This document shows, one piece after another, positions 1,585-41,377 of a DNA stretch of 64,000 nt; positions within the stretch are counted from its first letter, which is position 1; every line of letters starts with the position of its first letter. The notes beneath the pieces were generated by a model. That model was not told the origin of the DNA. It searched no databases and saw nothing but the letters and a program-made list of their open reading frames with translations. Position numbers and translations under genes: made by a program. Origin of the DNA: Candidatus Magasanikiibacteriota bacterium (GTDB lineage Bacteria; Patescibacteriota; Patescibacteriia; Magasanikbacterales; UBA922); the NCBI GenBank assembly GCA_041665025.1, contig JBAYJP010000006.1, positions 5,440-69,439 on the forward strand, read 5' to 3'.

Positions 1585-2973
1585 TTGGTTCTCAGTTATA
1601 TGGTAAAAAATAATATTATATTCACCTGTTCCAACTGTGGCGCCCAATTTAGTAAATGGACGGGACGTTGTTTGGATTGCGGAAAATGGGGAACAATTGA
1701 GCAAGAAACAAAATACATAGACAAAAATACAAAAATAGTAGGAGAATATAAGCCAGTACAAACTAAAACACTTGATGAAATAAAAGGTAATAATACACAA
1801 CGAACTAAGACAAACATTTCTGAACTCGACCGTGTACTCGGTGGTGGAATTGTCCCTGGCAGTCTGACATTACTTGGTGGCGAACCTGGCATTGGCAAAT
1901 CAACTCTTGCACTCCAACTCGCGCTGTCCATCTCCCCTGCTCTATACATTTCAGGCGAAGAATCAGTTGAACAAATCAAACTTCGTGCAGATCGTCTCGA
2001 GGTAAAGACGCAAAATTTTGCGTCTCTTGAGCTGGCCAACGAAACCAATATCGACTCAATCTGCGCTACTATAAAAAATGTAAAAACCCAGCATGCTGCG
2101 TCTATGGACTACCATCTTGCTATCATCGATTCGATCCAAACTATCTACTCAGACGAAGTCGAGGGCGAACCGGGAAACGTAACGCAAATAAAAGCATGCA
2201 CCATAAAACTTCTCGAATGTGCGAAAAGCACCCGAACACCAATTGTACTCATAGGCCACGTAACCAAAGATGGCGAAGTTGCAGGTCCAAAAACACTGGA
2301 ACATTTGGTAGACACTGTCCTTTATCTCGAGGGCGACCGTTATCATAACTATAGAATTTTACGTACCGCAAAAAACAGATTTGGCGCAACTGATGAAGTG
2401 GGTATTTTTGAAATGACTGGGGCAGGTCTTAAGCCAGTTGAAAATCCATCTGCAAGTTTTTTGCAAGAACGCGGAGAAAATATGCCTGGCTCTGTCGTTA
2501 CGTGTTTGTTGGAAGGTACACGTCCCCTGTTGGTCGAAATACAGGCGCTTGTAAATAAGACATCGTTTGGTTATCCAGTACGCAAAGCAAGTGGATTCGA
2601 CTTGAATCGCTTACATGTACTAACTGCAATATTGCAAAAACGCGCAGGTCTTAATCTCGCGCAATACGATATTTATTTAAACGTGGTCGGAGGAATAAAA
2701 ACATCTGAACCTGCCGCAGACCTCGCTGTGTGTCTTGCAATAGCAAGCTCATACAAAGACAAAGCACTGGGTAAAGATTTAGTTGTGTTTGGCGAAGTTG
2801 GTCTTGGCGGAGAAGTGCGTACTGTAGGTCAGACTGAAAAAAGAATAAAAGAAAGTATGGGATTGGGAATGAAAAGAGTGATAAGCCATTTCAGCAAAAC
2901 AACAGAACAACACAAAAACACATTAACATTGATTGATGTGAAAAATATTGCAGAGTTGATAAAGCATACGTAA
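1585..2973 (+). CDS. radA: DNA repair protein RadA/Sms
   Basis: N-terminal C4 zinc finger (CSNCGAQFSKWTGRCLDCGKWGT), RecA-like Walker A (GGEPGIGKST) and a Lon-protease-like C-terminal domain. Confidence 0.9.
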   Translation: MVLSYMVKNNIIFTCSNCGAQFSKWTGRCLDCGKWGTIEQETKYIDKNTKIVGEYKPVQTKTLDEIKGNNTQRTKTNISELDRVLGGGIVPGSLTLLGGEPGIGKSTLALQLALSISPALYISGEESVEQIKLRADRLEVKTQNFASLELANETNIDSICATIKNVKTQHAASMDYHLAIIDSIQTIYSDEVEGEPGNVTQIKACTIKLLECAKSTRTPIVLIGHVTKDGEVAGPKTLEHLVDTVLYLEGDRYHNYRILRTAKNRFGATDEVGIFEMTGAGLKPVENPSASFLQERGENMPGSVVTCLLEGTRPLLVEIQALVNKTSFGYPVRKASGFDLNRLHVLTAILQKRAGLNLAQYDIYLNVVGGIKTSEPAADLAVCLAIASSYKDKALGKDLVVFGEVGLGGEVRTVGQTEKRIKESMGLGMKRVISHFSKTTEQHKNTLTLIDVKNIAELIKHT

Positions 2974-3002
2974 GTGGTGACGAATTACAACCCATCACCT
3001 GT

Positions 3003-3105
3003 CCTCTTCCCTTAAAAAAGGAAGAGTAACCATCAGCGAACACAAAACTTCTCTACAACGTTCTCCCTCCCTTTTTAAGGGAGGGAGCCAGAGGGTGGGT
3101 TGCTC
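3003..3105. repeat. GC-rich REP-like hairpin cluster (family A): CTCTTCCCTTAAAAAAGGAAGAG, then CTCCCTCCCTTTTTAAGGGAGGGAG followed by CCAGAGGGTGGGTTGC.
   Basis: Perfect inverted repeats read directly. The same hairpin-plus-tail architecture recurs at 5397-5437, 6291-6330, 13586-13660, 14707-14737 and 34641-34802. Confidence 0.7.
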
Positions 3106-3122
3106 AGTCACCTTCAAACAAA

Positions 3123-3150
3123 AAACACCCTTTACAGGTGTTTCTTTTTA
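3123..3150 (+). terminator. Rho-independent terminator downstream of radA
   Basis: AAACACC / GGTGTTT 7-bp stem with a 7-nt loop, followed by CTTTTTA. Confidence 0.6.
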
Positions 3151-3339
3151 TAAACAAAAAACCGCCCAAAAATCCTCCTCGCTCTATCTCCCATTTGGTC
3201 ATCCCGAGCGAACGTAGTGAGAGAGGGATCTTTCTTACTAATAACTTTATTTATTTCTAAAGTTATTATTTCAAAGACACATGTCTTAGGAAAGATTCCT
3301 CGTCACTTTGTTCCTCGGAATGTAATGAGGAATACAGCG

Positions 3340-3740
3340 AGTCGTGGGCGGTCTTCTGTGGAGAAGTACTGGTGTAAAGAACGAGACCACTCGCGACTTG
3401 CCCGGCTGTGGCGGTGGGAGCCGGAAGGGCAGAGAGTCCGGGCCTAGAGGCCCGGCGAGGTCAGGCGCGGTTTCGCGCCTGCATCAGAGCGCGATAGTCG
3501 TTCGAGCCGATCCCGGACTGAACGCCCGAGAACGCGACATCGTAGGTGTTCTCCGAGCCGACCGGCTTGAAGCGAACACGGATGTCCAGTTCCGTGTTCA
3601 CACCCACGATGTGCCCACGCACGCCACGATCGCCTCGAACTTCGATGTGCTCTTCCAGAATCTTCACGAGTAAACTCCCTCAGGGATTTGCGCAAGGCCG
3701 CCTGCCCGACCCAATCGGGTATGGCCTCGCACGAGATGAC
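3340..3740. other. High-GC island 1, about 400 bp of GC-rich DNA in an AT-rich intergenic region. It carries one small ORF with its own RBS and terminator.
   Basis: Abrupt composition shift visible by eye. Long ORFs appear in several frames, which is typical of high-GC sequence. Confidence 0.6.
3461..3667 (-). CDS. Small (68 aa) protein encoded on high-GC island 1. It uses a GTG start and its function is unknown.
   Basis: GGGAG RBS lies 9 nt upstream of the GTG. A CCGGGCCTAGAGGCCCGG hairpin sits immediately after the stop at 3437-3456. Third codon positions are GC-rich. Confidence 0.4.
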   Translation of the reverse strand: MKILEEHIEVRGDRGVRGHIVGVNTELDIRVRFKPVGSENTYDVAFSGVQSGIGSNDYRALMQARNRA

Positions 3741-3824
3741 AACATAATACATAAAAAAAGTGAAAAAGTCAATCAACACAAAAAAACTGGGCAAAACCCA
3801 GTCTTATTCTATGTATGTTCTATG

Positions 3825-4499
3825 TCAGTCCAATCGCTTGATAACCAATTTTCTCTTATCTTTAGGATCCCATATTCCCTGTTCTTTCATCATCTGTTTA
3901 ATTCGAGCATCTTTTAATTCGGTAAAATTGTTTCCGCCTTCCTCTTTCACAAAAAAATCAAATGATCCTTGAGAAAATGCCTCTGCCACAATATAATCAA
4001 ACCCGAGCATCTGTGCCAATGCAATAAGCCTTTCTTTACATTCTGACCCCAAACCTTTGCCGTGATAATCTGCATTGATGTCAATAGTCTCTAAGACCAG
4101 AGCCTTTTGGTCTTTATTCAGCTTGCCAAGTTGTACATACAATACCGGCATTTTTTGTTCTTCATCCAAAAATAAATCAGTAACATCTCTACTTTCTTCA
4201 AAATGCAATTTTGTCCGTGCTGAAGTTCTATCATAACGTACCCTCTTATCTACAACAGCAAAATGCAGTGAGCGTGATGTCTTATCCGGCCCTATCCTAA
4301 GTTCAAATTGTCCTGCTTTGACTGCATCGGGCACGAGCAATGATACAGCTTCTGGGGGTAAATCAAGAGTATGGGCATCTCTCAACTCAGGATGGTTGGA
4401 AAAATAATCTTCAATCTTTTTTTTATGCCCACCAACTCTATCTCCTAATTCAAAGTTTGCAATGCGTGCTCTGCTATGTTGAGAATATTCCAAAGTCAT
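3825..4499 (-). CDS. GNAT family N-acetyltransferase
   Basis: C-terminal GNAT acetyl-CoA motif A: INADYHGKGLGSECKERLIALAQMLGFDYIV. Confidence 0.6.
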   Translation of the reverse strand: MTLEYSQHSRARIANFELGDRVGGHKKKIEDYFSNHPELRDAHTLDLPPEAVSLLVPDAVKAGQFELRIGPDKTSRSLHFAVVDKRVRYDRTSARTKLHFEESRDVTDLFLDEEQKMPVLYVQLGKLNKDQKALVLETIDINADYHGKGLGSECKERLIALAQMLGFDYIVAEAFSQGSFDFFVKEEGGNNFTELKDARIKQMMKEQGIWDPKDKRKLVIKRLD

Positions 4500-4521: not shown

Positions 4522-6735
4522 TTATTCAAGATGAACACTCGTTTCCCACTCCTCCACTTTCTCTCTCAAACTTGGATACTCTCCAAAATCAATACCTCTT
4601 GCCATATCTCGCGCTAGTTTAATCAAGTCATGATCTTTGAGCGTGGCTAATTTGAAATTCATCATACCACTCTGTGCTGTGCCATACACTTCTCCAGGCC
4701 CACGTTGGTCTAGATCATACTCTGCCACTTTGAATCCATCAGTTGTTTTTTCAAAATACGATAATCGTTCTTTTACTTTGTCTGTGTCACTGTCAGTAAA
4801 CAAAAAACAATACGACTGGTGAAAACTTCTGCCGACTCGTCCTCTAAACTGATGTAACTGAGCCAAACCAAACCTCTCAGCACCTTCTATCATCATCACA
4901 CTTGCATTGGGAATATTTACGCCAACTTCCACAACTGACGTAGAAACTAAAATGTCTAACTCCCCTGCTGCAAATTTTTTCATGGTCTCATCTTTTTCTT
5001 GTGATTTCATTTTTCCATGTAAATACCCAATTCTTAGATCAGGAAAAACATTCTTAGATAATTTCTCATATTCTGCGAGTACACTCTTTTTTTCAAATGT
5101 AATTGGTAATTGGTAATTGGTAATTGGAATTTTATTTGTATCTTGTCTCTTGGAATTTATTTCTTCTATTAGTGGGCATACAACAAATACTTGCTTTCTA
5201 CGCTTCACTTGTTCGCGTATAAACGCATACGCCTTGTCTCGATTGTGTGGATCTACGAGCCGTGTCATCACTGGCTTTCTATCTTTTGGCATTTCACGGA
5301 TAATAGACAAATCCAAATCACCATACAAAGTCAGAGCAAACGAACGTGGGATAGGTGTCGCAGTCATTGAAAGGAAATGGGGTGAAAGTCTGTCGTCCTC
5401 CCCTCTCTTCGTAAGAGAGGGGCCGGGGGTGAGTTGCGCCGCCGAAGAAATACTTTTCTCTTTTAAAATCTTCCTCTGCTCTACCCCGAACCGGTGCTGT
5501 TCGTCCACAATCACCAAACCCAAATTCTTAAACTGCACATCTTCGGTAAGTAAGGCATGCGTCCCCACAATAACATCAACCTCTCCTTTTGCGATTTGGT
5601 CTATCATTTCTTTTTTTTGAGAAATTTTAGAATTGTTTCGAAATTCGAAATTCGAAATTCGAAATTCATTACGCGTTTGAATCCCCAACCTAACTTTATC
5701 TCCCAACAACTTCACAAGCGACTCATAATGTTGCACCGCCAAAATCTCTGTCGGCGCCATGATGACTCCCTGATATCCATTAAGTGCGGTATTATAGAGC
5801 GCCATTGCCGCCACAACTGTTTTACCAGACCCAACGTCCCCTTCTAGCAAACGATTCATCGGCTCTTTCTTTTCCAAATCTTGCAAAATTTCCCATGCTG
5901 AAACTTTTTGATCTTTCGTGAGTGCAAAAGGAAGCGAATGTACAAATTCTTTAATGGCGTCTTCTTGAAATGAAAGTTGAGGAGCAACAGATCTTTTTAT
6001 ACTTTGGCGTATCATTTCAGCACGAAGTTGCATGACAAATAGTTCATCAAACTTAAGCCGTCTTTGCGCGTATTTCAATTCATCTTGGCTTTCAGGAAAA
6101 TGTATTGCTTTCAAGGCCTCTTGCAACGGCATAATATCTGCCTGCTCCAATAAGTCATCGGGCAACCATTCCTTTATTTCATTTCTAACCTCAATAATCT
6201 GGCTCATCAAAAATCTAATCTGCTTGTGCGTTATACCGGTTGTCAATGAATACATCGGCACTATTCGAGCTGTGTGCGTACTCAAGAGCGTTCCCTCTCC
6301 TTGTAGGAGAGGGTCAGGGTAAGGTCTCTGCTTCACCTTTTCATATCCAGGAGAAACCATCTCTAACCCAAACATATCTGACTTTACTTTCCCAGATAAA
6401 TACACACTATCACCCACATGCAGGGCTTTCGCAATAAACGGCTGACCAAACCAAATAATTCGTAATTGCCCTGAATCATCGGCAACTAAAGCTTCAGTTA
6501 TCATTTTCCGTTTCCGCGGACTTCGTTTATTTGAGATAAGTTCAATTTTTCCTTGTATCGTAACATCCATCCCCTCTTGCAAATCTTTAATTGAAACAAC
6601 GGAACTGTAATCTTCATAGCGAAAAGGAAAATAAAACAAAAGATCCTCGACTGTTTCCACACCGAGATGTTTTAGCCGCGTTGCAAGGATTTTCCCCACG
6701 CGGTTTAATTGTGTAATAGGGGTAGTCAAATTCAT
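4522..6735 (-). CDS. recG: ATP-dependent DNA helicase RecG
   Basis: Wedge/OB N-terminus; helicase motifs GDVGSGKT, DEQHRFGV and MTATPIPRS. It contains four in-frame repeat insertions, described in the findings. Confidence 0.9.
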   Translation of the reverse strand: MNLTTPITQLNRVGKILATRLKHLGVETVEDLLFYFPFRYEDYSSVVSIKDLQEGMDVTIQGKIELISNKRSPRKRKMITEALVADDSGQLRIIWFGQPFIAKALHVGDSVYLSGKVKSDMFGLEMVSPGYEKVKQRPYPDPLLQGEGTLLSTHTARIVPMYSLTTGITHKQIRFLMSQIIEVRNEIKEWLPDDLLEQADIMPLQEALKAIHFPESQDELKYAQRRLKFDELFVMQLRAEMIRQSIKRSVAPQLSFQEDAIKEFVHSLPFALTKDQKVSAWEILQDLEKKEPMNRLLEGDVGSGKTVVAAMALYNTALNGYQGVIMAPTEILAVQHYESLVKLLGDKVRLGIQTRNEFRISNFEFRNNSKISQKKEMIDQIAKGEVDVIVGTHALLTEDVQFKNLGLVIVDEQHRFGVEQRKILKEKSISSAAQLTPGPSLTKRGEDDRLSPHFLSMTATPIPRSFALTLYGDLDLSIIREMPKDRKPVMTRLVDPHNRDKAYAFIREQVKRRKQVFVVCPLIEEINSKRQDTNKIPITNYQLPITFEKKSVLAEYEKLSKNVFPDLRIGYLHGKMKSQEKDETMKKFAAGELDILVSTSVVEVGVNIPNASVMMIEGAERFGLAQLHQFRGRVGRSFHQSYCFLFTDSDTDKVKERLSYFEKTTDGFKVAEYDLDQRGPGEVYGTAQSGMMNFKLATLKDHDLIKLARDMARGIDFGEYPSLREKVEEWETSVHLE
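5397..5437. repeat. Family A GC-rich hairpin, in-frame inside recG: CCTCCCCTCTCTT CGTA AGAGAGGGG then CCGGGGGTGAGTTGC.
   Basis: It translates through on the minus strand as ...AAQLTPGPSLTKRGEDDRLS... in the variable region before MTATPIPRS. Confidence 0.65.
6291..6330. repeat. Family A GC-rich hairpin, in-frame inside recG: CCCTCTCC TTGTA GGAGAGGG then TCAGGGTAAGGTCTC.
   Basis: Translated as ...KQRPYPDPLLQGEGTLL... It contains a GTAG tetranucleotide. Confidence 0.65.
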
Positions 6736-34640: not shown

Positions 34641-34802
34641 GCCCCTCTGAGTTTGTTCGAGCAACCCACCCTTAATCCCTCCTTTAAAAAGGGAGGGAAA
34701 GACGATTTAACAAACTCCTCCTCCCTTTTTAAGGGAGGAGGTTGGGAGGTGGGTTGCACGGACAATGCAAGGGAAAATAAAAAGAAGATAGGTTGCTCGA
34801 AC
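34641..34802. repeat. Family A REP-like cluster: two oppositely oriented CTCC(T)CCCTTTTTAAGGGAGG hairpins nested inside a GTTCGAGCAACCCACCC ... GGGTGGGTTGC ... GGTTGCTCGAAC outer inverted repeat
   Basis: Intergenic, between aspS and the M23/LTD gene; read directly from sequence. Confidence 0.65.
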
Positions 34803-39427: not shown

Positions 39428-40144
39428 TTATAAACGTGGACGATTGTTCCGATCACGATTCCACATGGGTGGATTATATATAATATAACGTTGTATATTA
39501 TGAAACGCCGTTTCATTTCGGATAATATTATCATAAAACGACCGTTGCCATTTGAATTGTGGAAAACCAATTTCGTGGATACGTTTCGACGTGGTCGTTT
39601 TCAATGCGCCGATAATATTTGATAATGATAATATGTTGTATGAACCCGGTGCATGTAGGGACAGGTCTAGACCTGTCCCTACACCACGTTCCATGTCAAT
39701 CATCATATTGAGGTCATTGCCGCGACCTGCCCCTACGGACCCCGCATTATCCAAATCCATTGCAATACCACCGGCATGACCCACCCCTACACCATCGGCA
39801 CAATCCATATCAATATCATTATTCAAATCCATTGTAATATTATTTCCATTGACGACCGTATCGTCACATATTTCCAATATCCCATGCACATGGTTCGGCA
39901 TAACCACAAACCCGTGTGATCGTATATACGAATATTGGTGCGACAACCATTCCCATTGGCGATATAGGACCGTGCCCACACGATTCACGCACATTACACC
40001 ATTATATACACCACCAAAAAATGAAATCCTACCCTCTACACAGATCGTAATAAAATAACACCTATTATTTTTATAATCAAAACCCCGTAAACGATTATTT
40101 TTTCTATTATTCCTCCTATACATATACGCATAGTATACATGCAA
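39428..40144 (-). mobile_element. REP-associated tyrosine transposase (RAYT, IS200/IS605-like Y1/HuH family) carrying an in-frame insertion of about 85 aa
   Basis: YFITICVEGR...VVMPNHVHGIL (HuH) ... FKWQRSFYDNIIRNE (catalytic Tyr helix) ... YIIYNPPMW. The order and spacing match E. coli YafM-type RAYTs, apart from the insert between the HuH motif and the Tyr helix. Confidence 0.75.
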
Positions 40145-40559
40145 AATTCTATGATTTAAATCTATCTAACTTAGACGAACTTAGATAACTTAGGTACTTA
40201 GCAAACTCAAGTTTATCCCCACTCTATCCCCAAAAGCGCTCTTGACTTGACAAAAAGGCTAAAAAGTGGTCTAATAGGTATGTATTTAGGGAAAAATGTC
40301 TCATACCACATACCACACAACAACTCGCTTGTTACGCGGTATGTGTCATGTGACCACGAGGCGAAGCTTTTCGTGGCGCATACACTATGCATAGTGAGCC
40401 CAATACCACTCTGGTATAGGACAAACTTCCGTAAACAAAATGTTCTGTTCTTTCCATTTGTCACACTATTCCTCTGATCAAGGAGTAGTACGACAATACA
40501 ATTAAGTGCGCGAGGCAATTTATCACGTGTCCGCCCAAGGCGGATTTACGTGAGACAAA

Positions 40560-41300
40560 CTCGTCCGTTTTAAAATTTAGAAACCACGTCGTCAACCAGC
40601 AAGAGTGCGATGTGGATATTGAGAAGTAAATTTACTCCTTAGTACCCACATCACATCTCTCGACCGCGAGAAGTTTTTCGGGGGCACTCGCTCCCGACTC
40701 GCGGTCAAGCCGCAAGCGCCGCGTTTCGCGGTAAGGAAAGGGGGACTCATGTCCCACCTGCGGCTCGCGCTGTTCGCCGCGATCGCGGCGCTGGCACTCG
40801 TCCTCTCGGGCTGCGTCGAGCCCGAGGACGAGACGAATGAGTCTCCCGACACGACGCAACAGCCGTCGGGAGATGTGCAGGCGCCCCTCTGCCAGAAGAA
40901 GGCGGACGGGACCTGCCGCGACGACGTCGCCCCCTCCCCGGGCGACGAGATCGTCGGTGACGACACCGACGGGGAGACGGACGAGGACGTCCTCCAGCCG
41001 AACGGCTGCGAGGCGGTGGAGTGGACCGAGATCACGATCGGCCACGACATCGCCCTCTGCCACGCCGAGAACGGCATGGGCAGCGAGGGCGAGTGCGAGT
41101 TCGCCATGTACGAGCAAGATGGGCAGTGCGTCACCGACTGCATGCCCAACTTCTCGGGGCGACCGACGAACGAGATGGAGGCGGTCCCTGGTGGATTCGC
41201 CTACAACCACCCGTTCCTCGGGCGGGTCATCTGCATCATGCAGTGACCCGACCACACCCGACTGAGCTCGTCCGTGGACTGGGATGCGTCGCGCACCGGT
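40560..41300. other. High-GC island 2, about 740 bp, immediately upstream of the RAYT and 3' of the giant gene
   Basis: Abrupt compositional shift. Contains the inverted repeats GACCGCGAG..CTCGCGGTC and GATGTGG..CCACATC. Confidence 0.6.
40749..41246 (+). CDS. Lipoprotein (165 aa) encoded on high-GC island 2
   Basis: Signal peptide with lipobox LVLSGC; a GGGGG RBS; strongly GC-biased third codon positions. Overlapping ORFs in other frames are GC artefacts. Confidence 0.55.
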   Translation: MSHLRLALFAAIAALALVLSGCVEPEDETNESPDTTQQPSGDVQAPLCQKKADGTCRDDVAPSPGDEIVGDDTDGETDEDVLQPNGCEAVEWTEITIGHDIALCHAENGMGSEGECEFAMYEQDGQCVTDCMPNFSGRPTNEMEAVPGGFAYNHPFLGRVICIMQ

Positions 41301-41333
41301 CCCTAGAGAATAACAAAATGGTATTATCTAGAG

Positions 41334-41366
41334 AAAAAAAATCTCCCAAATTGGGAGATTTTTTTG
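41334..41366. terminator. Bidirectional terminator AAAAAAATCTCCCAA-ATT-GGGAGATTTTTTT directly 3' of the giant gene
   Basis: Perfect 9-bp stem flanked by an A-tract and a T-tract. Confidence 0.75.
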
Positions 41367-41377
41367 TTTTGGAATCT

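Follow-up and report, generated by a model that had tools for sequence, protein, structure and literature searches.

Gene content and composition of the radA–recG spacer

The window, that is, the whole stretch of DNA analysed, is a 64-kb sequence from a Candidatus Magasanikbacteria MAG. The conserved genes radA and recG converge in this sequence, and the spacer between them (hereafter the slot) holds a short GC-rich segment, designated island 1, together with a predicted small transcription unit on the minus strand. The features of the locus are listed below in the order in which they occur from radA to recG.

1585–2973, plus strand: radA, the conserved right-hand flank, converging on recG (Pfam AAA_25, KaiC-type ATPase, zinc ribbon and Lon_C/ChlI)
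2977–3111, no strand assigned: REP-like nested hairpins of 'family A' (inverted repeat I1, 2988–3022 / 3068–3102)
3123–3143, plus strand: hairpin on the radA side that resembles a terminator and has a T-run (terminator scan; matching hairpin in locus L083)
3148–3359, minus strand: two-tier hairpin followed by a U-tract, the real terminator of the unit (inverted repeat I4, folds and covariance)
3195–3324, no strand assigned: AT-rich long hairpin, a MITE/REP-like insertion of 130 nt in the terminator's apical loop (missing in L083 and L086)
3329–3411, minus strand: GC-rich segment of the 3′-UTR (76% identity over 85 nt to the 3′-UTR of L086)
3438–3455, minus strand: GC hairpin CCGGGCCTAGAGGCCCGG, 5 nt past the stop codon (sequence)
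3461–3667, minus strand: 68-aa ORF with a GTG start, p68, NCBI WCW16_05045 (ORF list and codon periodicity)
3668–3737, minus strand: 5′-UTR of ~70 nt with a GC-rich hairpin and the Shine-Dalgarno sequence GAGGGAG at 3681–3675 (sequence and fold)
3772–3744, minus strand: sigma-70-type promoter TTGACT-17-TATTAT (promoter scan, sequence match)
3783–3805, minus strand: intrinsic terminator of the upstream GNAT gene (terminator scan)
3825–4499, minus strand: orphan GNAT-like acetyltransferase gene between recG and the unit (weak Pfam Acetyltransf_1 match, 19.9 bits vs a cutoff of 20.7)
4522–6735, minus strand: recG, the conserved left-hand flank (Pfam families; synteny with radA in 73 loci)

Besides recG, the GNAT-like gene and radA, cellular housekeeping genes lie within 10 kb of the island, and DprA is encoded 7–8 kb away. 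A database search with the GNAT protein returned its own entry as the only match, and tblastn with the same protein across the other loci showed one weak relative only, located just downstream of radA in L042 (27% identity). The spacer of L006 holds an unrelated GNAT. The GNAT-like gene is an extra occupant of the spacer. The cluster of family-A hairpins to which a previous reading of this DNA, made from the sequence only, had drawn attention exists at ~2988–3102 and belongs to a repeat family with three copies in the window (3066–3110, 5400–5444 and 34720–34764); these hairpins are co-residents of the spacer and lie outside the unit.

The same sequence-only reading had described a GC-rich patch of about 400 bp, and the shift in composition could be quantified. 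The results showed that GC is 0.627 inside and 0.377 outside island 1, with maximum-likelihood change points at 3337 and 3733 (log-likelihood ratio 33.7), which corresponds to 63% for 3337–3733 against 38% in the surroundings; the mean of the 64-kb window is 0.40 (40%). When the 64 kb were scanned in 150-nt windows, only two stretches, ~3293–3751 and ~40618–41336, reached ≥57% GC. The second of these, designated island 2, is the sole other island. The right change point of island 1 (3733) would coincide with the predicted transcription start at ~3737, and the GC-rich segment spans the distance from this putative start to the 5′ arm of the terminator. On the other side, the island seems to stop at ~3337 because of the AT-rich insertion at 3195–3324.

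Two further assemblies of the locus were reached via the neighbouring GNAT protein. Positions 2900–4000 were 100% identical in both of them, an ENA MEGAHIT (k141) contig (L001) and the Logan assembly of SRR6484324 (L002), and island 2 was likewise found in the Logan and MEGAHIT assemblies. The identity of the sequence in two independent assemblies makes an assembler-specific chimera very unlikely.

Anatomy of the predicted transcription unit

The hexamers of the predicted promoter, TTGACT and TATTAT, also precede slot ORFs in L014, L039, L096, L114 and L127. In the window, 76 nt separate the −10 box from the start codon; the corresponding range in 28 other slot units with a promoter match of ≥10/12 is 43–101 nt. 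The 68-aa ORF on the minus strand, already proposed together with an upstream RBS, is present, and the RBS was located as GAGGGAG, 7 nt before the GTG start codon. GC at the three codon positions of the ORF is 0.67/0.41/0.74, compared with ~0.52/0.35/0.34 for radA, GNAT and recG. The antisense frame is likewise open (109 aa).

The hairpin that had been noticed right after the stop codon proved to be CCGGGCCTAGAGGCCCGG, in which CCGGGCC and GGCCCGG enclose a UCUA loop. The role of terminator that had been given to it did not hold, as a U-tract is lacking and the terminator scan did not pick up the hairpin. It is probably an mRNA-stabilising or processing hairpin, and GC hairpins in a comparable position are present past the stop codons of L025, L029, L036, L051 and L059.

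The predicted terminator proper lies further downstream. Its outer stem is formed by pairing of 3345–3359 with 3154–3168 (inverted repeat I4), and its inner stem, which has the purine-rich bulge GAGGAGGA, by pairing of CUCGCU with AGCGAG. An A-tract precedes the two-tier hairpin and a U-tract trails it, suggesting that it would probably terminate transcription in both directions. A consensus derived from 14 homologues/loci contains 23 pairs, 16 of them with compensatory changes, and the covariance model built from this consensus has its best match in the window at 3151–3235 on the minus strand (E = 6e-5), the other matches being generic terminators.

Alignment with the related loci showed that the 3′-UTR and terminator of the window (3411–3329 and 3195–3145) match L086 at 76–88% and L083 at 82–91%, and that the leader and the ORF are unique; in the terminator region, 3195–3145 aligns to L086 at 88% and 3197–3120 to L083 at 82%. 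Judged by this homology, the segment 3329–3411 is native conserved sequence and not foreign DNA. With the 3′-UTR and terminator matched in relatives, only ~3412–3740 of the island is unique, comprising the leader, the ORF and the stop-proximal hairpin. The 130-nt insertion in the apical loop is missing from the otherwise collinear elements of L083 and L086 and folds as an extension of the hairpin, and an Rfam scan of this insertion gave a spurious miRNA-hairpin match only. A 19-nt inverted repeat (3193–3211 / 3727–3745) was considered as the terminal repeats of a mobile element and was rejected, as no extra copies beyond chance were found.

The RNA of island 1 folds better than dinucleotide shuffles, with z-scores of −3.7 to −4.3. 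Investigation of Rfam 15 within 3340–3740 gave, at E ≤ 10, a chance miRNA-precursor match at 3686–3734 as the sole match (E = 4.8, 17.5 bits vs a gathering score of 85), and a scan of 2900–4000 gave chance miRNA-type hairpin matches only. ARAGORN found no tmRNA.

The p68 protein

The p68 protein had no match in Pfam, NCBIfam, PHROGs, PADLOC or PDB sequences. A k-mer-seeded search of 5.8 billion clusters returned its own entry (WCW16_05045) alone, and an exhaustive search of 1.8 billion representatives returned two repeat proteins only (E ~1e-4), which were judged spurious because the score arises through four weak repeats. No relatives were found by tblastn in metagenome and viral sequences or by tblastn and blastn in phage and plasmid sequences.

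Among the slot ORFs, residues 15–63 of p68 match the ORF at the same slot position in L016 (phmmer, 15 bits, E = 8e-5 among 55 sequences), and this score was reached by 0 of 1872 shuffles; BLASTP of p68 against the L016 ORF gave no match. Profile comparison of p68 with two slot superfamilies showed only a 14-column motif match (E = 0.033, probability 1.5%), a weak resemblance between the C-terminus of p68 and one of the superfamilies. AlphaFold predicted four strands and a C-terminal helix with a pLDDT of 58, a poor model, and the prediction on a 5-sequence family alignment had a pLDDT of 46. According to these comparisons, p68 is a predicted orphan small protein that represents the variable module of the slot and has one weak relative.

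Occupation of the slot in Magasanikbacteria

A total of 160 loci were fetched by RadA from GTDB genomes and JGI metagenomes, with RadA orthologues of 45–77% identity; the closest relative of the window has 76–77% RadA identity. The results showed that radA and recG converge in 73 non-redundant low-GC Magasanikbacteria-type loci, with spacers ranging from ~10 nt to >4 kb (<100 nt in 10, 400–1500 nt in 52 and >1.5 kb in 9 of the 73). In 38 of these loci, including the window, the spacer contains units on the recG strand that consist of a promoter, a long leader, a small RBS-led ORF with codon periodicity and a terminator; leaving the window aside, at least 37 genomes have a filled slot, and REPs are present in some of them and absent in others. 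A GC-rich island of 300–500 nt lies directly after radA in ~20 GTDB loci.

In the common layout of the spacer, seen in the direction of the recG strand, a near-consensus promoter overlaps the terminator of recG. Next come the leader, an RBS-led ORF of ~40–200 aa and a GC hairpin past the stop codon, and the unit closes with a two-tier hairpin and its U-tract. A promoter match of ≥10/12 was present ahead of 29 of the 55 slot ORFs, compared with 3.3% of shuffled upstream regions. Arrays of two to three units, each with its own promoter, occur in L014, L024, L034, L096 and L127.

The slot units are mostly 10–25 GC points above their genome. When the most GC-rich ORF of each locus was compared with the genome GC, the excess was ≥0.10 in 28 and ≥0.20 in 11 of 37 loci (window excluded), and the slot ORFs of the relatives have a GC3 of up to 0.93 and a GC2 of 0.3–0.5. 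Island transcripts also fold more strongly than shuffles (mean z ~−2.3, 7 of 12 at ≤−2), and radA controls gave values of ~0. An Rfam scan of 11 related loci at the gathering score gave tRNAs only and no match in the islands. A tandem GCCGTCAC motif in the leader was examined as a general recombination site and was discarded, as it is restricted to one clade.

Replacement of modules and selection on slot ORFs

The 55 recG-strand slot ORFs fell into 41 BLASTP clusters. Loci L025, L029 and L040, whose RadA proteins are 94–97% identical, carry three unrelated ORFs, and the ORF of L016 differs from those of its close relatives L019, L021 and L026. Conversely, ORF family A is common to L008 and L019 (66% RadA identity), and ORF family B is common to L025 and L036 (76% RadA identity) and also occurs in L059. 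In these sister clades, therefore, the slot content differs in the closest relatives and recurs in distant ones, which is the behaviour looked for in a minimal mobile element. As no genome with more than 77% RadA identity to the window was found, this replacement of modules concerns the sister clades and not the species of the window itself.

Comparison of L025 with L029 showed 88–91% homology through the end of recG and the promoter, then none, and homology returned at 84%, 5–16 nt past the stop codons, and continued through to radA. Across such pairs, homology ends just after the promoter and returns 5–64 nt past the stop codon. Reshuffling also affects which leader goes with which ORF: L025 and L036 have the same ORF family and different leaders, and L029 and L036 have a leader in common but not the ORF.

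Four orthologous ORF pairs gave dN/dS values of 0.3–0.45 at dS of 0.7–1.7, with a GC3 of 0.8–0.9 in both members. The slot modules are genuine genes under purifying selection. A GC3 of this height despite such dS values indicates that GC is maintained and not decaying; high GC characterises the slot modules and persists over long divergence. When 5.8 billion clusters were searched with a profile of the family-B-like superfamily, Magasanikbacteria proteins alone were retrieved, and neither ORF families B and C nor the island 2 protein had relatives in IMG/VR.

A proposed mechanism and its alternatives

Our preferred reading, which we think probable although far from assured, is that the island forms a single transcription unit and is what this genome carries in a variable small-gene slot common to the lineage, in which modules are swapped. 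A near-consensus sigma-70 promoter would fire on the minus strand just past the GNAT terminator and give a GC-rich, strongly folded mRNA of ~460 nt, or ~590 nt with the AT-rich insertion, in which a 70-nt leader, a strong Shine-Dalgarno sequence, the 68-codon GTG ORF and the stop-proximal GC hairpin would follow each other; the conserved 3′-UTR would end in the two-tier terminator facing radA, probably acting in both directions. From these signals we infer that the unit is transcribed and translated, and its predicted product is a small soluble protein with no signal peptide and no known relatives. In Magasanikbacteria generally, the slot between convergent recG and radA would be empty or would hold one to three units, of which the promoter, part of the leader, the 3′-UTR and the terminator appear to track the host lineage, and the leader–RBS–ORF module appears to be replaced wholesale, even between near-identical genomes.

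Replacement may occur by DNA uptake and subsequent homologous recombination in the conserved flanks. The breakpoints in conserved frame sequence and the presence of DprA nearby point indirectly to this route, and cultured Patescibacteria (Saccharibacteria) have been shown to be naturally competent (PMC10633639). A further contribution may come from differential loss within tandem arrays. The modules may be fast-turnover accessory microproteins, most plausibly serving conflict or partner interaction. Their high GC may be caused by a hidden high-GC reservoir, by biased gene conversion at a recombination hotspot or by selection for stable mRNA; with regard to a reservoir, no homologue of the modules was found anywhere searched.

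Differential loss from ancestral arrays is the main rival for the origin of the diversity. Here the modules would be inherited vertically from an ancestral tandem array and lost differentially, and a slot-intrinsic process (GC-biased gene conversion at a recombination hotspot, or mRNA-structure selection) would raise their GC. That arrays of two to three units with their own promoters exist, and could mimic swapping, fits this explanation, and repeated leaders and terminators would favour deletions. However, L025, L029 and L040, whose RadA proteins are only 3–6% apart, have one different module each and would require three independent losses from a recent three-unit ancestor, and leader types and ORF families are reshuffled among L025, L029 and L036. 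Concerning GC, recombining bacterial genes tend towards higher GC3 (PMC4450053), and this recombination-linked rise, the persistence of high GC3 at the dS values given above and the folding of the island transcripts relative to the radA controls all favour a slot-intrinsic process, whereas a change in GC3 from ~0.35 to ~0.9 far exceeds the reported effects of biased gene conversion in bacteria. Taken as a whole, vertical inheritance with differential loss seems unlikely to us, but it is an explanation to be taken seriously. A structured non-coding RNA gene, whose GC would be high on account of its structure, as happens in other AT-rich genomes, and with the ORF as a by-product of GC-rich sequence, was also considered. 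It would agree with the promoter and terminator that bound the island, with the fold z-scores, with the long ORFs on both strands and with the orphan status and low-confidence structure model of p68. Against it, the RBS-led frame has a GC2 much lower than its GC1 and GC3, the ORFs of relatives combine high GC3 and low GC2 with conservation at the protein level and dN/dS <0.5, the central region is unconserved between relatives, contrary to what a conserved RNA would show, and within 3340–3740 the Rfam and tmRNA searches gave nothing beyond the chance miRNA-precursor match. This makes a non-coding RNA gene rather improbable.

The sequence-only reading had interpreted the unit as a cassette acquired through capture by adjoining REP/RAYT material, a mechanism that would hold for both islands. 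Such a one-off capture of foreign high-GC DNA, from a donor common with island 2, would account for the deviation of GC and dinucleotide signature from the host and for the likeness of the two islands; the dinucleotide delta is 0.117 between islands 1 and 2, and 0.208 and 0.286 between the islands and the host, values that at 400–640 nt are weak evidence. REP-like hairpins also lie ~230 bp off, and a weak IS200-like Y1 transposase ORF adjoins island 2 (39428–40144; Y1_Tnp E = 0.0017, below the cutoff; 36 kb from island 1). The idea is, however, largely refuted by synteny, since island 1 sits in a conserved Magasanikbacteria recG–radA slot that is filled in other genomes whether or not they have REPs there. 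Moreover, the RAYT-like ORF is 36 kb away, the REP-like hairpins lie on one side of island 1 only, which is not the arrangement of a REP/RAYT-associated element, the segment 3329–3411 and the terminator have homologues in relatives, the unit has the promoter type and the leader length of its lineage, and searches of protein, plasmid, phage, viral and metagenome sequences found no donor. REP-like hairpins, a DUF559 endonuclease gene and GNAT genes are present in this permissive spacer in various genomes, suggesting that the REPs are co-residents and not the capturing agent. Neither the promoter nor the slot architecture of island 1 is present in island 2, and a common mechanism for the two islands need not hold. 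What survives of the cassette is a compact expression unit whose ORF module is replaced in relatives; its foreign one-off capture we regard as quite improbable. An integron-like gene cassette or orphan attC cluster, moved by site-specific recombination, would explain a small ORF followed by an imperfect structured hairpin and varied ORFs downstream of a fixed promoter, but no GTTRRRY or RYYYAAC core sites are present on either strand of 3100–3830, no integrase is among the called genes within 10 kb on each side, the 3′ hairpin tracks the host lineage and not the ORF family, and the units have their own promoters, so that this explanation is highly improbable. The suspicion of an assembly chimera or contaminating high-GC reads, raised by the metagenome-assembled source and the sharp jump in composition, is scarcely tenable given the identical MEGAHIT k141 and Logan contigs with island 2 in both, the coincidence of both edges with functional signals of host type and the homology of the 3′ part to other Magasanikbacteria.

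Relation to known systems and significance

Under the preferred reading of a variable small-gene slot, the locus is a variant of a moron-like or minimal-mobile-element-like hotspot. Phage morons have their own promoter and terminator, deviant GC and a position between adjacent phage genes (PMC2920897). Like a moron, the slot has its own promoter and terminator (by sequence match) between two conserved adjacent genes, a GC that deviates from its neighbours and varied units at one hotspot across genomes. Unlike a moron, it is chromosomal and lies between housekeeping repair genes, not in a phage or prophage, and its promoter–terminator frame is conserved while the ORF module alone changes. Searches for a phage link of the slot or p68 gave no PHROG, phage-record, viral-contig or IMG/VR relatives.

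The minimal mobile element of Neisseria (defined in PMC3787668), for which transformation and homologous recombination in the flanks is the accepted explanation, is likewise a variable region between specific conserved flanking genes. In the slot, by contrast, what is exchanged is one microprotein ORF within a conserved expression frame, the modules are orphans with systematically high GC, the phylum is Patescibacteria, and transformation is a matter of inference. Integron cassettes are similar to the slot in having small, mostly orphan ORFs, each followed by a structured element and expressed at a fixed site, and they differ from it in that the slot has no attC core sites or nearby integrase, its hairpin is the terminator of the host frame and its units have their own promoters. 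The island also shares sharp bounds and well-folded RNA with the GC-rich structured-RNA islands of AT-rich genomes, from which it is set apart by a periodic RBS-led ORF, an unconserved centre and the lack of an Rfam family. In the literature, no prior description of GC-rich small genes in Patescibacteria was found.

A more far-reaching proposal, which we put forward tentatively as a possibility that may well prove wrong, is a dedicated recG–radA slot with a fixed strong promoter, a long leader, a 3′-UTR hairpin and a probably bidirectional terminator, in which a large pool of orphan microprotein genes is continually exchanged and high GC (GC3 up to 0.9 in genomes of 35–47% GC) is actively maintained. 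If this were true, the slot would resemble an integron or moron hotspot without a dedicated recombinase, specific to ultra-small epibiotic bacteria, and would probably serve conflict or host interaction. Its GC signature would then point to an unrecognised force, such as biased gene conversion of extreme strength, selection at the RNA level or a hidden reservoir of high-GC genes, for example the host bacteria.

At a single chromosomal address, the slot reveals a pool of no fewer than 40 unrelated orphan microprotein genes that look expressed, in a phylum, Patescibacteria, few of whose lifestyle genes are known. It is also natural material for the study of gene turnover by recombination in naturally competent ultra-small bacteria. 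High GC3 through ~1 synonymous substitution per site in AT-rich genomes conflicts with simple amelioration, and its persistence could be used to test ideas of biased gene conversion or RNA-level selection. For curation, brief GC-rich stretches in Patescibacteria MAGs are readily written off as contaminating or chimeric sequence; island 1 is reproducible and lies at a conserved locus.

Accessory genes in the recG–radA spacer

In the window, the spacer between the convergent genes recG and radA (the slot) carries, besides the GC-rich promoter–ORF–terminator unit of island 1, a further gene located between this unit and recG.

3825–4499, minus strand: GNAT-like gene

The protein encoded by this gene had no match but itself among 5.8 billion protein clusters and is thus an orphan. 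Among the related radA loci from other genomes and metagenomes (L-numbers), the same spacer of L006 holds a GNAT gene unrelated to that of the window, and L042 has one whose identity to the window's is 27%. Taken together, these genes show that the recG–radA spacer gathers accessory genes of several kinds. In L025, the stretch between the slot terminator and radA holds a small gene for a DUF559 endonuclease-like protein (Pfam E = 2e-32), and similar AT-rich ORFs were found in the spacers of L026, L029, L040, L051 and L083. The DUF559 gene is bracketed by REP-like hairpins of the CCTCTCCTAAGAGGAGAGG type, which suggests that it is a REP-flanked selfish insertion.

Many of the GTDB records, namely L004, L006, L015, L025, L027, L030, L031, L033–L036, L038, L040, L048, L054, L056 and L059, are titled 'uncultured Gammaproteobacteria bacterium'. 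Their RadA and RecG proteins are 52–74% identical to those of the window and their synteny is that of Magasanikbacteria; the organism names in the titles appear to be wrong.

Repeats in the slot terminator and the 5′ leaders

Within the slot terminator, a two-tier hairpin with a U-tract, a long hairpin has inserted precisely into the apical loop; no further copy of this long hairpin was detected within the window.

3195–3324: AT-rich long hairpin of 130 nt, MITE/REP-like, with CCGAGG/CCTCGG-type arms

In the 5′ leaders of L029, L036, L051 and L059, two direct tandem copies of GCCGTCAC, separated by 0 or 1 nt, lie about 30–45 nt upstream of the start codon; the repeat is degenerate in L040 and not present in the window's leader. 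It is conserved within one clade, where it precedes unrelated ORFs, and it may be an operator or an RNA-binding site.

A REP-like repeat within recG

The REP-like 'family A' repeat D3 occurs in the window at three places.

3066–3110: D3 copy
5400–5444: D3 copy
34720–34764: D3 copy

The second lies in frame within recG (4522–6735, minus strand; stretch concerned 5382–5445). Between helicase motifs II (DEQH) and III (TATPIPR) it adds 17 residues (ISSAAQLTPGPSLTKRG) to RecG, and these residues are absent from RecG of L003, L009, L016 and L025. The arrangement is similar to that of the palindromic elements that lie in frame in Rickettsia. Another insertion specific to the window (about RPYPDPLLQGEG) is located further upstream in the protein.

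Island 2 and other GC-rich coding islands

The other GC-rich patch of the window, island 2, is also contained in the Logan assembly (SRR6484324).

40660–41300: island 2, with a 165-aa ORF at 40749–41246, plus strand
41335–41369: hairpin flanked by A- and U-tracts, beside island 2
40145–40660: hairpin-rich stretch separating island 2 from the next ORF
39428–40144, minus strand: RAYT/IS200-like ORF with a long low-complexity insertion (sub-cutoff Pfam match to Y1_Tnp, E = 0.0017)

The protein encoded by the island 2 ORF (GC3 = 0.92) carries a signal peptide of the lipoprotein type and an LSGC lipobox; relatives of it were not found in Pfam, PHROG, PADLOC or IMG/VR. The ORF has no sigma-70-like promoter upstream, and the slot architecture of island 1 is not common to island 2.

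Two larger GC-rich ORFs were found in genomes of 46–48% GC.

L035 12288–13250, minus strand: 320 aa, GC3 0.97
L039 12388–13335, minus strand: 315 aa, GC3 0.74

Since both lie outside the radA–recG slot, GC-rich protein-coding islands occur at other places of these genomes as well as in the slot.
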